Source: Eledone cirrhosa (taxonomy: Eukaryota). Taken from it: 64,000 bases of DNA. The stretch is taken from contig CAXHJY010000133.1 of assembly GCA_964016885.1 (NCBI GenBank), positions 1-64,000 of the forward strand, read 5' to 3'. Below, piece after piece: positions 22,299 through 63,221 of the stretch; position 1 is the first letter of the stretch; the number at the start of each line of letters is the position of its first letter. The notes under the pieces are model-generated. The model had not been told where the DNA came from and searched no databases. It saw nothing but the letters and a program-made list of their open reading frames with translations. The position numbers and the translations under genes were made by a program.

Positions 22299-22899
22299 AT
22301 TATGTAAAATCTCCCCATTTTGCCTCATTTCTCTCCGATTTGGGCACCTTTTTCATGCTAAACCGTTTAGGTTTTTAGAGGTTGGCAGGTCGGGATTTAT
22401 GTTTTTTTTTATGATTTGTACAGTTACACCCATTTTTTGTTATAGGTGAAATTTACAGGGTGGGGGAGATCTATGGTAATTTTTTTATAATTACATCCGT
22501 CTAACGTTAGAGGTGAATATAATTTTTTTCTCTTTTTTCTGGTAAAATTTTATAACCAAAGGGGTTGTTATAACATTCATGAGGTCAGTTGGTCACGCTT
22601 GGGGATCTAGCTGGATCAATAAGTGGGCGAGGAAGAAGAAAGGTTTTACAATTACACTGGTCTCACTTTAGTACTGACATTTATGGGTGGGGGTGGGGGA
22701 GTCTGGCAAATGTTTACAATCATAGCCAATTGGCAAGAGACACAGGGGTAGACTTCAAAACAAGATGGTTGGATAACATCCATGAGCTTAGCTGGTCATG
22801 CTTGGGGATCCAGCCGGATCAGTTGCTTCTGACAGGGCCCACTCGAAGCATAAGGAAAGTATATACTTTCAGACGTTCAATCATCTGGTAGGAAGGTAT

Positions 22900-22942
22900 A
22901 CATTGCTGACGATAGCTAATAAGCTTGAAACTAGTACAGCGT
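22900..22942 (+). ncRNA. Minimal type-I hammerhead ribozyme motif (family B1, copy 1)
   Basis: acattg-CTGACGA-tAGCTaataAGCTt-GAAA-ctag-TA-cagcgt. Confidence 0.7.
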
Positions 22943-23334
22943 TCCTTTGTCAGTGTTGAACAAACGAGCAACGATGGTTGCTGGACACTACGGCTTAATA
23001 TGGGATGTTTGTTTACAAACACACCGAGCATTATAATAAATGTTCGGTGAATCCATACGTACATATACATATGTGTGTATGTATGTATATATATATATAC
23101 ATACTACTGTACGTCTGTATACATATATGTATGTACGTATACATACTTATATTTAAGTAACAGCCGTACTAAGAGTGAGAAATGAAATTTCGTTTCATTT
23201 TTTCCGTTTATCGTTTTCGGTACCCCGGCCGATTAACTCACCCGATATGCAAATTAGGCTGCTCAGCCGTTAATATGCATATGCATAAGGAAAGTATATA
23301 CTTTCAGACGTTCAATCATCTGGCAGGAAGGTAT

Positions 23335-23377
23335 ACGTTGCTGACGATAGCTAATAAGCTTGAAACTAGTACAGCGT
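23335..23377 (+). ncRNA. Minimal type-I hammerhead ribozyme motif (family B1, copy 2)
   Basis: Stem I ACGTTG/CAGCGT, core CUGACGA, stem II AGCT/AGCT, GAAA, palindromic stem III ACTAGT, GUA cleavage triplet. Confidence 0.8.
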
Positions 23378-23714
23378 TCCTTTGTCAGTTGACAAACCCA
23401 ACGACTCTCTCGGGAATAAGTGGGCAAAGAAGAAAGTTTTTTATAATTACACTGGTCTCGCTTTAGAAGTGAAATTTATGGGTGGGGGGTGGGGGAGTTT
23501 CTGGTAAAATTTTACAATCATATCCATAGATCTCCCATTTGAGAACTCCGTGGGTGAATGTCCTGCACTCCCATCCAATTAACAAAAACAGAAAAATAAT
23601 AATTTCCGGTGAATTTGAATGTCAGATTCATTAAAAACACATCAAACACCATATGAAAAAAACATATTTCATGGTTTAAAGCCAAACAGGTGTAATTATA
23701 ATGGATTCTGATTT

Positions 23715-44607: not shown

Positions 44608-45163
44608 CGAGGGGGCTTAATGGAAAAAGTACATAACTAAAAATCATAAGCAGGGATTTTGGTCTCAATGTATCTGTACGTTCTCATACTAACGTGTCGT
44701 AACATGTCCTAACATGAACCCTTAAATATATGTTGTAATGCGGCGCCACCAGTCTGTAGTCAGCACCTGCTCAAGCAACATGGCCTCCATCAAAATTGAG
44801 GCCAGGACAAACATCAAATTCATGGTGAAGCTAGGGTGGAAGAACAGCCAAATCATTGACTCCCTGGAGCAAGTTTTTGGGGACAATGCCCCAAAGAAAT
44901 CAACAACTTACAAATGGATGAGTCATTTTAGAAGTGGAAGAGATGAGGTTGAAGATGATCCCCAGTTGAAGATGTAAAAAAAACTGTTTTGACATGGTGT
45001 AAATCACATGGCCCTCAGTGTTACACAGATAGACCTAAAGACTTGTATCAACACTTACAGAAGTGTATTGGCCTAGCTGGAGCATATGTTGAAAAATAAA
45101 CATCATAACTTAAACCCTTTTTTTGCAACTGTCCTTTTCCACAAACTTTTTGAAGCCCCCTCG
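44608..45163 (+). mobile_element. Internally deleted mariner (irritans/Hsmar2-like), 556 bp
   Basis: TA TSDs and TIR cgagggggct.../...ccacaaactttttgaagccccctcg. Transposase N-terminus from ATG 44780: MASIKIEARTNIKFMVKLGWKNSQIIDSLEQVFGDNAPKKSTTYKW. It is fused at ~44965 to the C-terminus VEDVKKTVLTW...HLQKCIGLAGAYVEK*. Confidence 0.88.
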
Positions 45164-45708: not shown

Positions 45709-45759
45709 GGCTTCTACAGGACTAGAACTGCTTCATTCGGGAGAAATCATCAGGAAGCC
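45709..45759 (-). ncRNA. Hammerhead family A motif with GAAA>GAAG core change (probably inactive)
   Basis: GGCTTC-CTGATGA-tTTCtcccGAAt-GAAG-CAGttctagtcCTG-TA-GAAGCC. Confidence 0.55.
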
Positions 45760-49396: not shown

Positions 49397-49736
49397 TAAA
49401 GTTAAAAAGAGAAGATAAATAGACGGTAAAGAGTGATGAGAGGAAGGAACAGGGTGGGGTGTGTGTGTGTGTGTGTGGGGGGGTTTAAGGAGAAATAAAA
49501 CCACACGTTCGTATTCAGTCGGCCATCTTTTGGATTCCCGATGTATATCAGGAGGCAACCACAGTTAAAGAGGGTACTCAATACATTAGTAGAGTATAGA
49601 CGTATATATTTTAATATAGAAATGACTCCTAGAGGACTAGAACTGTCTCATTCGTAAGAAATCATCTGACTAGTTGTCTGCTGGGGCTCTTGGACATTTC
49701 GACGCATTAAAGACAATATATACCAAGATAATAATT

Positions 49737-57856: not shown

Positions 57857-58065
57857 CTCGTATACGAGAGATGTGTGTTGACGTGTGTGAACAAGCTCGG
57901 ATACCGAGTCGGATTTACTTACTCAAAAGTGAGTTTTGATTAATTTTTTATACTGTAATATACGTTAACCCCTTGCCTTGGTCGTCAAACTTTGAGTTTA
58001 TTTATTTTCGCCCCCTTTTGGGGCGAATTTTCCAGTTAAAAATTTATTACGGCAAACTAATAGAA

Positions 58066-59788
58066 ATGGACGGAATTTTCACATCTCATCCTAACGTGAA
58101 AGCCACGCCCCCTAAGAAAGGTGATACAGAGAAGCTAGAAGCACAAGGCTCTAAGTCTTCCCTCCTCACTTCTGCAAAAGAAACATGGAACACAGAATTA
58201 AAAGAAAAATTTGTAAAAATGGGTGAAAACCCAGAAAGTCACATAAACGCAGACAAAAACAACAATGACAATAACAGCAATAGTCACAACACCAACCAAG
58301 GAAAAAATAACGATAACACCAAACAAAGCGAACCCACTACTGGTGCCTCCTTTGCACAGGCGGTCCGGAAAACACAAACCTGCAAGCAACTGGACATTAC
58401 AACTCTGAGAGAAAAGATGAAGGAAGCGAAACAGTATGTAACTTTCAAAGAAGGAGGAGACTTCACAATCACCTCCCCACAAGAAATCAAAAGAGACACG
58501 ACGCTAAGAACGATATCTTTCAGAACAATTTCCAACATAACAAGGAAACCAGCTCAATTATCCCAAAAAGAGATTGAGCTGGTCCTAAAAAATGTGTGGA
58601 GTGATATATCGTTCATACAAAAAGGGCCACTCTATGGGAATATAACGGTCCTAATGAAGGATCAATTGACGGCCAGGAAATACTCTGTGGCGCCAATTGT
58701 TTCCAAGCTACATACATTTTTCCCCACATATTTAGGGAAAAGAACGCAGAAAATAAGGGTCTCCGGAATCCGGCCAAATGCATGCATTTCCTGGGTACTA
58801 ACAGGATTTTTAGAAGACGAGGACAGAATCCTCTCAGTAGGAGAAGTCACCACAGACGTTTTCGGCGTTTTGTGCGTGGAGGTTCTGGTCCAAATGAGAC
58901 CAGAACGAATAGCTAGAATACCACAGAGGGTGTCCCTCGATGGAGAAACATTTATATACATTTCAGCCGAGGGTAGGAGGCCCATATGTTACTACTGTTC
59001 AAGCAGGGGTCATCTAAGGGCTGCTTGTCCTCAATTGACAAAAAAAAAGGCTCTTTTACCTACACCCCACACACCACCACCGCCACCACCACCACCTCCA
59101 CCACCACCACCACAACAACAACAAAAACAACACGGAAAAATAACACAAGACACGGCCCCACCCAAAACAACTCCCAAAACACACACAAATACAACAAAAC
59201 CCCAAAATACACCACTACCCGACAGCACGGACGAGGACCCAGCTGAAACGGCACCTAGTGACGAAGAGGGGGAACCCTTCCAACCTGTAAAAAGGAAAAA
59301 AAGAAAGCACCACTCGAACATAAACGAAACAAACACACAACCACCAACAAAAACAAAACAAACAGAACAAACAAAATCCGCCCCACCCCAAAACATAACA
59401 CATACAACAAAACGTAAGCATACACAAGAACAACAAACAAACACAACACAAATAAAACAGTATACATACATTAACACAAATAACAAAGAACTAGTAAAAA
59501 CAATACACGGTGGAAACTGAAGGGCAATTCTTTGCAAGCGCGGCCAACAAACTGCATTTAAAAATGATAAGACTCCCAATGGACACCTATGCAAAACTAA
59601 GAGAGAACTTTCCTGAGGACATGGGGAAAACATGTACTCAACCCTATAACCGCGTCCTCTTGAAACGTTTCCCCACCCACACCTCACCAAACACCCCCAC
59701 TCCACCACAGAACAACACCCCACCAAACAACCCCTCCAATACGCCCATGGATATTGTGCAACCTGCTCTTCAGGAGCCGAACAGGTAG
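58066..59788 (+). pseudogene. LINE ORF1 (gag-like, CCHC zinc knuckle); main frame ends 59520, probable frameshifted C-terminus to 59788
   Basis: SFAQAV motif, CYYCSSRGHLRAAC (CX2CX4HX4C), basic FQPVKRKKRK segment. First ATG at 58066. The overlapping frame 59510-59788 ends 21 bp before ORF2. Confidence 0.8.
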
Positions 59789-59809
59789 GTCCTTCCTCTT
59801 TTAACCAAC

Positions 59810-62800
59810 ATGGCTGATATAAGAGTTGGGTGTCTGAATGTACGCGGCCTGGGACTGTCTTGGAAACAAGGCAAACTTTTAAACGATCTCAGGTCGCATA
59901 GAATGGATGTAATGGCTATTTGCGAGTCCAGGATCAGCAGCGAGCACCAACTGGCGCCCCTCTTCGACGACTTTGAGATCTTCGCATCTCTCTGTCAACC
60001 GGGGGGTGGAGGTGGAGTTGTCGTTCTGCTGCGAAAACACCTGGGCCTCGCCATACAGAAGGTGCACCTGGACCCGGAGGGTCGACTGGTGGTTTTAGAC
60101 GTCGGCAGTTGTGAAAGTGGAGCCCTTAGACTAATAGCTGTGTACGCCCCTTTTTGGGCAGCGCGGCGGAATACTTCCAACGTCTGGAAACTTTTCTGGG
60201 AACGTCCCGCTCCTTGCTTTTAGTGGGGGACTGGAATGGTATCCTGGATGCACGTTGGGACTATGTAGGGGCATGTGCCAATAGAGGGTGGTGTAAAAGC
60301 CTCAAAAGGTTAATCGGCCGATTTGACCTGGCCGATAGATATCGACTAGATTTTCCGACTGTACCACTATGGACGTGGACCAATCGCAGCGGAACATCTA
60401 GGTCGTACCTAGATAGGGTCCTAGTTAGAGAGAAGGATAGGGACACATTTAGCTGTCCAAAAATGTTCATGGTTGACTATTCGGATCACAAGTTAGTGAC
60501 CTGCATAGCCAACCTTGATAGAACCCATAGACAGGGACCCGGTTACTGGAAGCTGAACTTGTCCTTACCGAGAAGCAAAGCTTACAGTAAACGGATTAGC
60601 ACGTTAGTTAAGCAGAGTTTGACAGGGGCAATTGTCAACAACAGGTGGTGGAGCTCTCTTAAGAGAGCAATTAGAATAGAATCGATAGGTTTTAGTCAGG
60701 AATTAGCAAGGGATAGGAACAAGACGGAAAGGGAATTAGTAGATAGAGTAGAAGAGGCGATTAGGAGTGGCAATGTAGCCGGCGTGCTGGCATCAAGAAT
60801 GGCCTTAGACCAGTTCTTTGAGGTGAAGCATGAAGGCTGCGTTGTCAGGAGTAAAATACGTGCTCTGGGTAATGAGGGAGCCAAAGCTGTGAGCTGGGCC
60901 CGAGTGACAGAGGCAAAAAGTGGGAACAAGTCCACAATTCGGTCTTTGAAGGACCAGGATGGGCGTGTGATCCTTGAACCTGGGCAGATGTGTGCGGCCT
61001 TTCAGCGGCACTTTGCACGACTGTTCGAGAGGGGCAGCGCGCCGGGTGAGACTATGGATTTCAATCCATACCTCGACGGTCTGCCGCGCCTCTCGGATGC
61101 GGAGGCGAAGTCCTGCGAAAGGACGATTTCAGGTGCTGAGATAGGGGCGGCAAACGCAAATCCCCGGGTCTCGATGGTCTACCATACGAGCTATATGTAG
61201 CGATGCCGGACTTGTTCTCCGATATCCTCGAAACGGTCTACTGCAACTGGCAGCAGAACGGGAGAATTCCCAGTTCTGTGACCAAGGGCGTAGTTACGCT
61301 GGTGAGGAAGGATGAGAACAAGGGGGATGACATAAGTAACTTCAGGCCCATAACTCTGCTAAATACAGAGTTAAAGATTTTGGCCAAGGTGTTAGCGAAA
61401 AGGTTGGCGCTTGTCGTTGGAAACCTGGTGGGAGAAGCGCAGACATGCGCAATCCCGTCCAGGTCCATTCACGACAATCTCCACCTTATGCGATACATCA
61501 TAGAGAGGGTAGGGAATGAACCCGGCTTTGGTGGGGCCCTGATCAACTTGGATCAATCTAAAGCTTTCGATAGGGTTGACCATCGTTACCTGGATGCGGT
61601 GCTCGCGGCAGCAGGCTTCGGACCTGTTTTCAGGGGTTGGATTGCTGCGATGCACAGCAGCAACGTCTGCTCAAGGGTCAAGGTGAACGGCCACCTCTCG
61701 GAGCCGTTCCAAATCATGCGATCCATCCGACAGAGATGCCCTCTCTCCTCCCTACTGTATGTGCTGGCTCTTGAGCCACTACTGCGGAAGTTGGAGCGGT
61801 TGCAGGGCATCCCTTTGGAACCGGGATTGCAGAAAGCGGCGTCGGCCTACGCCGATGACGTGACAGTAATGGTGTCGAAAACCTCGCAAATCGGCACCTT
61901 ACTGGAGGAATATGAAAGGTTTACAGGAGCCAAGCTGAACCGGGACAAGTCCGTCGGTTTGCAACTCGGAACATGGAGAGGCAAACCGATGCCCTCCAAC
62001 GACGTCGTCGGACGCTGGACGGAGGGCCCGGTGAAGCTGCTTGGGGTCTGGTTCGGACCAGACCTCCAGGTGGAGAAAAACTGGAACGAGGTAATGGCCA
62101 GGGTGTTTGCACTCACCCAGAAGTGGGCCCAGTGCAAACTATCCCTGAAAGGTCGAGCGGAGGTGGCGAATACTTATATAGCATCCGTCATCTACTACCG
62201 CTTGACCGTCGTGCCATGCCCAGTGAAAAGACTCGCCAAAATGGAGTGCGCGCTGTTCCAATTTCTTTGGAACAAGCGGACCCCTTTGGTGAGGAGATCC
62301 ATCTGCTGTCAACACCCTTCGAAAGGAGGGCTGGGGATGCCGTGGCTACAGATGCGTAAACACGCATTAAGGCTACGGCACCTCCAGGTATTCCTCACCG
62401 GTCAACCGGTGTGGACCCCGTTTGTGAGGCGAGCCTTCCCCAGACTCGTCTCGCTCACCGAGCTGCAATCCTGGGTCAAGCAAAGACCGAGAAAAGTGGG
62501 CGACTGGCACATTGAATGTGCCCAGGCGCTCACGGCCCTCTGGAAAGCGGACCCGGCAATCAGTGGAGACTCCACCTCGACATTCTATAGAGGGTTGGTA
62601 CGCAGCAGGTGCGACGATGCTCTCGGAGAAGCTCTAGGCATGGAGGAAGATGAACTGGCCAGTCTGTTCGGTAGGACGTTTGGCCCTGGACCGATGGACA
62701 ACTTCCAAAAGTCCCTGGCTTGGCAGTGCTACCGAGGGGCTCTACCCGTTCGAGACAAGCTCCACAGGCATGGGAGCCTGGGTAGAGATCCTTTGAATAA

Positions 62801-63221
62801 GATCTGTCCGAGATGCGTGCATGATGACGAAACCGTTGCGCACGCATTCGTACACTGCCCAGGCATTGCTGACCTGTGGGGCTATGTGGAACGACTACTG
62901 TCGAGGGTGGGACCAATCCGGTTGACCACCGAGTCCATTGTCACGATCAAACCGCCTCCCCCTTTCAAAAACGAAGGAGAGGCGGTTTTTCTCTGTGTGA
63001 TAGCCATGGCTAAAGAAGTTGTATGGTGGACGAGGCTGAAAGGGCTGAGGTCAGACACCTTTCTCTCCGGCCAACAACTGGTCCCCTTTTTCAAATACCA
63101 TTTTAAAAGAAGGATCAGAATGGAGAGAGAGGTGCTCTACCCCAGCAAGTTTTATGAAAGGTGGGTGAAAGTAGGGAGAATGGCCAGAGTGAATGGGTCT
63201 TCTCTCTATATCAGCCTGTAG
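59810..63221 (+). pseudogene. LINE ORF2: APE endonuclease, reverse transcriptase and C-terminal zinc motif; frameshifts near 60150 and 61150
   Basis: GCLNVRGL, VYAP, GDWN, SYLDR, SDH, GYWKLN, KSPGLDGLPYELY (frame of 61203), FRPITLLNTELKILAK, DQSKAFDRVDH, RQRCPLS, YADD, CPRC...ETVAHAFVHC. Confidence 0.93.

Follow-up and report, generated by a model that had tools for sequence, protein, structure and literature searches.

The Locus and Its Surroundings

The window considered here, that is, the whole stretch of 64,000 nucleotides from the octopus Eledone cirrhosa that we analyzed, carries a short insertion in which two near-identical direct repeats each hold a hammerhead ribozyme motif (Table 1). 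The only gene found nearby is a tensin-like SH2 gene, whose SH2 exon is 98% identical to the tensin-like protein of Octopus sinensis; the insertion lies about 19 kb past the stop of this gene and is antisense to it. An L1/Tx1-type LINE and a fragment of a Mariner transposase are likewise listed in Table 1, and positions 1-2000 of the window form a pure AT repeat tract with not a single G or C. When 231 frames of the window were scanned against Pfam (227 stop-to-stop frames of at least 55 aa that passed a complexity filter, plus four LINE frames), neither a Penelope reverse transcriptase (RT) nor a GIY-YIG domain was found, and the only RT detected was an unrelated one of the L1/Tx1 type.

The boundaries of the insertion could be read off from a paralog of the interrupted host repeat that is located about 200 nt upstream. 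The left flank (22758-22821) aligns with 22554-22618 and the right flank (23415-23526) with 22618-22728, and these two stretches of the paralog adjoin without a gap. Since the flank matches are contiguous in the upstream paralog, the block 22822-23414 is a single insertion with at most 1 nt of the target duplicated; judged by these alignments, its flanks are part of an old local duplication. With a neighboring paralog that serves as the empty site, and with both ends mapped, the insertion is unusually readable. Its target site has ATT on the bottom strand, the cut motif of the anole Penelope element (PMC11167929), a 3-mer that carries no weight in AT-rich DNA. We also considered the left junction filler as an inverted copy of the element tail, in the style of Penelope insertions, and rejected this idea because the match is not significant (933 of 5000 random and 855 of 5000 shuffled controls).

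An earlier description of this DNA, made from its letters and hereafter called the sequence-only reading, had claimed near-identical direct repeats 435 nt apart. This claim held: the repeats 22848-22954 and 23283-23389 agree, ungapped, at 105 of 107 positions with an offset of 435 (blastn E 1e-48), the two differences being 22889T/23324C and 22902A/23337G. When gaps are permitted, the similarity carries on as far as 22974/23404, with a score that was equaled by 4 of 1500 random window segments, and the degenerate stretch 23390..23404 sets the 3' end of the insertion about 33 nt beyond the second predicted cut site. The hammerhead pair at 435-nt spacing is the sole close direct pair in the window and is without relatives there. 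Tandem Repeats Finder gives no 435 period at the locus, which holds about 1.3 units with two complete motifs and no array. The two copies diverge by 1.9%, compared with about 15% between the host paralogs, and the insertion is therefore young.

Table 1. Features of the insertion and of its surroundings, with positions in the window.
Feature	Position	Strand	Evidence
Intact older paralog of the interrupted host repeat, empty-site stand-in, outside the element	22554..22728	+	84-86% blastn identity to both flanks
Whole insertion, 593 nt; about 1.3 units plus short junction fillers; target duplication of at most 1 nt	22822..23414	+	Flanks contiguous in the intact paralog
Left junction filler, 26 nt, absent from both the unit and the empty site	22822..22847	.	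Junction alignment
Repeat copy 1, partial extra unit at the 5' end	22848..22954	+	105/107 positions same as copy 2
Hammerhead 1, type I, predicted cut after 22936, helix I broken by A22902 x C22940	22900..22942	+	Descriptor, 5/6 helix I pairs
Predicted monomer, 435 nt cut to cut, 36.8% GC	22937..23371	+	Folded as a circle
Hairpin of 11 bp in the spacer, AAUAAA (23035-23040) overlapping its loop	23022..23049	+	z -6.35, 0/200 shuffles; motif scan
TA/CA microsatellite-like tract in the unit, long hairpin, no better than composition	23055..23159	+	Tandem Repeats Finder; z -0.76 for 23056-23150
Three predicted hairpins (23170-23210, 23213-23237, 23245-23282), 3' part of the spacer	23170..23282	+	z -2.5 for 23151-23282, 1/100 shuffles
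Repeat copy 2	23283..23389	+	blastn
Hammerhead 2, type I, intact 6-bp helix I, predicted cut after 23371	23335..23377	+	Descriptor, 6/6 pairs; HH9 alignment below gathering score
Degenerate unit continuation, matching 22955-22974 with small deletions	23390..23404	+	4/1500 random segments of equal score
Right junction filler, 10 nt	23405..23414	.	Junction alignment
Tensin-like SH2 gene, last three coding exons, 98-100% identical to Octopus sinensis	49288-49199, 44178-44005, 42290-42087	-	Protein comparison
Mariner (Mos1-type HTH) transposase fragment, in an intron of the tensin-like gene	44726-44974	+	Pfam
L1/Tx1-type LINE; ORF1 zinc knuckle; ORF2 endonuclease, RT and zf-RVT over three frames	57940-63221	+	63% to an Argonauta protein

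The Hammerhead Motifs in the Two Repeats

In each repeat a CUGACGA core, at 22906 and 23341, respectively, is accompanied by helix II, GAAA, the palindrome ACUAGU and the helix I partner CAGCGU, with the CUGANGA ... GAAA ... UH core and an open-ended helix I present in both copies. Helix II consists in both of a U.U pair plus AGC/GCU and is capped by the loop UAAUAA. Position N17 is an A at 22936 and at 23371, in agreement with the cuts that the sequence-only reading had predicted after these two nucleotides, and the triplet at the site is GUA. This is a permitted hammerhead cut triplet, generally slower than GUC.

A hammerhead descriptor, composed after the motif had been seen and permitting U.U at the base of helix II, matched 12 loci in the 64-kb window (both copies and 10 others), where locally shuffled windows average 0.04 (a locus turned up in 8 of 200 shuffles), so that the motif is not a product of chance, and the claim of a hammerhead with CUGACGA, GAAA, ACUAGU and a GUA site in each repeat stands. 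Rfam, applied to the whole window at gathering score, gave no matches. An E-value search of 1 kb returned 39 matches, none of them a hammerhead; these were mostly miRNA models lying on the microsatellite tract, and we dismissed them as composition matches. With the query confined to 23300-23410, the best match was Hammerhead_HH9, aligned over its full length with 19.6 bits (E 0.0069), which falls short of the cut-off of 52, and relative to its consensus the loops are partly kept (loop 1, GUAU/UCC vs. UUAC/UAC; loop 2, UAAUAA vs. CAAAAA). In this alignment, helix I has 6 bp and an internal loop, helix II has 4 bp and a 6-nt loop, and helix III has 2 bp.

Canonical metazoan type I hammerheads have a helix I of 6 bp, a helix II of 4 bp and a helix III of 1-2 bp with a palindromic 2-4-nt loop, whereas the minimal form known from Penelope elements (min-HHR) is without helix III and has a long helix II (7-8 bp) and a short helix I (PMC4209133). 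Copy 2 displays the canonical geometry, with U.U as the first pair of helix II, and copy 1 has five of the six helix I pairs. Neither copy corresponds to the min-HHR definition, since helix III is present, helix II has 4 bp and helix I has 6 bp. On these structural grounds the motif is a canonical metazoan type I hammerhead and not the minimal Penelope form; the label "minimal" used in the sequence-only reading disagrees with both the HH9 alignment and the published definitions (PMC4209133) and has to be dropped.

Two departures from the standard structure had also been overlooked. One of them is the first pair of helix II, which is U.U where G-C is usual (G10.1-C11.1). It need not necessarily be read as decay, because the axolotl ribozyme HHR_Amex2, which cuts efficiently as a dimer, has the same U.U at the base of helix II (PMC7229834), and because 9 of the 12 descriptor matches in the window, representing three sequence families, have it as well. 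The other is an A x C mismatch that interrupts helix I in copy 1 and goes back to a CpG-type change at 22902. As the second inter-copy difference converts a G-C pair into G.U at 22889, both differences weaken copy 1; the helix I pairs of hammerhead 1 have probabilities of at most 0.04 in the folding prediction.

The Spacer, Its Coding Content and the Predicted Circle

The interior between the repeats measures 328 nt. The sequence-only reading had placed a hairpin there, which we recovered at 23022-23049 (Table 1), and had stated that the spacer is without an ORF. The latter was borne out insofar as ATG ORFs overlapping the element do not exceed 94 aa, a Pfam match was obtained for none of the five longer frames tested, and the two frames used as protein queries retrieved no close homologue. 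An 83-aa minus frame gave no matches at all; a 94-aa plus frame gave a single weak one (E 5e-4, 44% identity, to an unnamed protein of 2563 aa), which we disregarded, since near identity would be expected of a true DNA copy. No ORF for an RT plus GIY-YIG protein, the mark of an autonomous Penelope-like element, is present in the element interior.

The best-folding part of the spacer, 22955-23055, reaches a z of about -5, which is matched by 7 of 153 background windows of 101 nt, and the 3' parts are unremarkable against the window background (71 and 25 of 153). A perfect octamer, ATGCAAAT, is found at 23247-23254 inside the last spacer hairpin (23245-23282), possibly by chance. The base right after this same hairpin corresponds to the insertion's 5' end; an RT could have stalled at this point, and the correspondence may also be fortuitous.

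Folded as a circle, the predicted monomer has an MFE of -138.7 kcal/mol (z -7.9, 0 of 60 shuffles), strong folding being common here, with 2 of 40 other 221-nt windows at z -7.9 or lower. The predicted circle branches, and helix I together with its extension (22937-22961 with 23310-23340) closes it. Helix I re-forms over the circle junction and is extended to 24 pairs, of which the last seven use spacer-specific bases (43 of 3000 random tails do equally well).

This extension bears on whether the repeats and the spacer form one element. The locus could be a one-off chimera in which two truncated hammerhead-bearing ends, or a repair-born local duplication, enclose unrelated captured DNA, with neither a family nor an RNA product behind it. 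Such an origin would agree with the plain TA/CA microsatellite tract in the spacer, with the unexplained fillers at both junctions, and with the fact that no other copy of the unit was found in the window (blastn, nhmmer), through the two translated queries, or in plasmids and prokaryote genomes, the last two being collections that were not expected to contain copies of it. However, the spacer is missing from the empty site, its first bases lengthen the repeat's own stem, and the sequence after copy 2 still resembles the start of the spacer, which is what one expects if copy 2 begins a second round of the 435-nt unit. We consider a chimera very improbable; the spacer probably belongs to the element.

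Two near-identical direct repeats that flank a short non-coding interior also bring to mind a miniature LTR element (a TRIM or a plant-type LTR retrozyme) with 107-bp LTRs. Yet, on inspection by eye, neither strand shows TG...CA ends, a primer-binding site behind repeat 1 or a purine tract in front of repeat 2; a 4-bp target duplication is lacking, and the ribozyme is of type I and not of type III. An LTR element is, in our view, extremely improbable.

Interpretation of the Insertion as a Probable Non-LTR Retrozyme

We regard the insertion as probably a young, partly decayed copy of a non-LTR retrozyme, that is, a non-autonomous derivative of Penelope-like elements. Two hammerhead motifs in a single insertion, the lack of a coding frame and of LTR signals, and the overrun of both cut sites detailed below support this reading. 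Membership among the non-LTR retrozymes is likely on sequence features: a head-to-tail pair of type I hammerheads, a non-coding unit of 435 nt that lies in the 150-450 range and has a GC content under 50% (37%), no PBS or PPT, and a stable, self-paired predicted circle with helix I re-formed at its junction. The retrozyme-like interpretation put forward in the sequence-only reading is thereby sustained.

The element would be cut from a read-through transcript as a 435-nt RNA and then circularized, and the 435-nt circle would likely be copied back into the genome by a Penelope-like RT. For ligation we assume RtcB and for copying a Penelope RT, both taken over from PMC7229834, where they are likewise proposals. 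Retrozymes have no reported promoter in the accessible part of PMC7761336, and none was recognized here; the unit has an AAUAAA at 23035. We discarded an internal Pol III promoter (there is no more than a loose A-box-like match, the B-box lies on the minus strand alone, and the unit contains a T6 run at 23198) and also read-through from the tensin-like gene, which lies on the wrong strand and whose coding sequence ends about 19 kb away; no sense-strand host transcript was evident for the insertion in the window.

In the predicted monomer fold, CUG of the core is paired with UAG of the palindrome at probabilities of 0.9, 0.89, and 0.7, and the A15.1-U16.1 pair has a probability of 0.0. Because of this pairing and the unformed A15.1-U16.1 pair, the single ribozyme and the circle are both predicted to be inactive. 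Helix III would be too short to work singly, and cutting would need two copies that pair their ACUAGU palindromes into a 6-bp helix III; a unit-length circle would thus be protected from re-cutting. The double hammerhead fold is 4.5 kcal/mol better than two monomeric folds; in a model without tertiary contacts, opening the cores by force places both active folds 14-19 kcal/mol above the free ensemble. If only the helices are enforced, helix III of the dimer costs 6.2 kcal/mol, helix I of site 1 adds 0.3 kcal/mol and helix I of site 2, which in the dimer draws on the mutated arm of copy 1, adds 7.1 kcal/mol. Given these last two values, cleavage of the locus would be easier after 22936 than after 23371. 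Double cleavage of the present locus is doubtful in these models because of the A x C break in helix I of copy 1; two later transitions would have weakened this copy, and the locus may yield little monomer. Among the Xenopus retrozymes studied in vitro, one of nine predicted dimers cleaved and eight did not (10.64898/2026.07.22.740005).

The order of the parts within the insertion is informative about its template. A 26-nt filler is followed by 89 nt before the first cut site, the full 435-nt unit, 18 exactly matching (33 loosely matching) nucleotides after the second cut site, and a 10-nt filler. Both cut sites are overrun, and a linear cut-to-cut RNA could template neither overrun without strand jumps; the template was thus not a simple linear cut-to-cut monomer, and we infer from the arrangement of the sequence that it was either an uncut multimer or a circle traversed about 1.3 times. 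Reverse transcription would start 18-33 nt beyond the cut site on circular or uncut multimeric RNA and would stop after about 1.3 rounds, with a Penelope-type RT/GIY-YIG protein presumably acting in trans. A start of a Penelope RT at a fixed tail on retrozyme RNA is so far a proposal of published work.

An uncut template leads to a different account, in which an ORF-less, non-autonomous Penelope-like element was copied from an uncut linear tandem transcript, the hammerheads being passengers, and cutting and circles being irrelevant to movement. The ancestry would be the same as in the retrozyme interpretation, the only difference being whether a circular RNA exists. Hammerhead mutants of the anole Penelope element insert normally, uncleaved RNA is its main template, and its RT starts internally downstream of the ribozyme, leaving a tail of 30-40 bp (PMC11167929); the 3' end of the insertion studied here, 18-33 nt beyond the cut site, fits such a start. 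The ten other hammerheads in the window, moreover, are solo or fold-back, as is typical of truncated Penelope ends (PMC4209133). Passenger hammerheads are harder to reconcile with the canonical geometry with loops 1 and 2, which is tied to circle-forming retrozymes rather than to Penelope pLTRs (PMC7229834), and with the pairing of the unit ends with each other, as a circle would need. We hold the uncut-transcript account to be rather unlikely and keep to the retrozyme interpretation in the comparisons that follow.

Comparison with Known Retrozymes and Penelope-Like Elements

Metazoan non-LTR retrozymes have been described from Mytilus galloprovincialis (350-390 bp), Acropora millepora (220-245 bp) and the axolotl (Rtz_331 and Rtz_353), and the retrozyme circles of the mussel come from its 350-390-bp repeats (PMC7229834). 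The octopus element resembles them in its head-to-tail type I hammerheads, its non-coding unit of under 50% GC without LTR, PBS or PPT, its weak helix III and its self-paired predicted circle; it also has the U.U at the base of helix II in common with HHR_Amex2, and a mollusc as host in common with the Mytilus element (PMC7229834). In contrast to the metazoan retrozymes, its 435-nt unit is at the top of the 150-450 bp range, the locus consists of about 1.3 units rather than an array, the unit contains an internal TA/CA microsatellite hairpin, and the circle is predicted to block its own ribozyme core, unlike most predicted metazoan circles, in which the core is free (PMC7229834).

With Penelope-like elements and their pLTRs, the insertion shares a partial-tandem layout, a type I hammerhead in both repeats, a palindromic helix III, a 3' end a few tens of bases beyond the cut site and the lack of a clear target duplication (PMC4209133; PMC11167929; 10.1101/2021.04.23.441226). 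Unlike those elements, it has no RT or GIY-YIG frame, and its hammerheads have 6-bp and 4-bp helices with both loops instead of the minimal form. Plant LTR retrozymes, like the octopus insertion, have two hammerheads in direct repeats and a non-coding circle (the latter predicted here), but their type III ribozyme, LTRs of 300-400 bp, PBS, PPT and 4-bp target duplication are all absent from it (PMC5680766).

The vertebrate non-LTR retrozymes derive, as non-autonomous elements, from Penelope-like elements, and those of Xenopus are homologous to Penelope pLTRs (10.64898/2026.07.22.740005). The octopus element agrees with them in a unit within the range of 51-972 bp, in two complete hammerheads and in a Penelope-rich host (10.64898/2026.07.22.740005); in O. 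vulgaris, 6.83% of the genome consists of Penelope-like elements (PMC13282606 supplement), with 30 Penelope families described as recently active. The pipeline used for the vertebrate retrozymes requires a Tandem Repeats Finder array of at least two consecutive hammerhead-bearing units, an array not obtained at the octopus locus, and the species set of that work comprises 31 vertebrates, 3 insects and 1 anthozoan, and no mollusc (10.64898/2026.07.22.740005).

For cephalopods, 235 Rfam Hammerhead_1 loci have been counted in the giant squid (PMC6962438), and the accessible part of a study of Penelope-like elements names Octopus only for the hammerhead-less Naiad elements (10.1101/2021.04.23.441226). 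A published example of a cephalopod retrozyme was not found among the titles listed in our literature search, within whose reach most subscription papers did not fall. The element class, the dimer mechanism and the U.U variant are already described, so that the surprise for a specialist is modest; if real, the locus would extend hammerhead circRNA elements to the cephalopods.

A more far-reaching proposal is that the insertion represents a first cephalopod retrozyme family whose 435-nt circular RNA is active, whose U10.1-U11.1 hammerhead is locked as a monomer and unlocked only as a dimer, and whose genomic copies all end 18-38 nt past the cut site, this being the fixed tail that a Penelope RT leaves when it primes internally. 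We put this forward tentatively and think it unlikely in this full form. If it were true, it would provide direct sequence evidence for the still unproven mobilization of animal retrozymes by Penelope proteins, and octopus cells would contain an abundant, A/U-rich hairpin circle as a possible substrate of A-to-I editing. Such editing is strong in octopus cells.

Other Hammerhead Motifs in the Window

A second, multi-copy family of type I hammerheads was noticed among the descriptor matches (45856+, 51482+, 54004-, 54016+, and 55208+), with relatives near 3961-4157, 15466, 45712-45756, and 49551-49666. Its members have a 4-bp helix III, a helix I of 5-8 bp and U.U at the base of helix II, and several copies are fold-back palindromes. 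The longer helix III suggests that ribozymes of this family could cut as monomers.

Two more fold-back palindromes, 33018-33451 (hammerheads at 33169- and 33298+) and 36701-37210 (36897- and 37013+), are 92% and 97% self-complementary, respectively, and carry a hammerhead motif in each arm, as is typical of truncated, inverted Penelope ends. The hammerheads at 51047- and 50027-, with a relative near 34696+, combine a long helix II with an AU-only palindromic helix III and are followed by an A-rich sequence resembling a polyA signal. If the frequency of U.U at the base of helix II seen in the window (9 of the 12 matches) holds genome-wide, this variant would dominate the octopus hammerheads, and standard Rfam scans would miss them.
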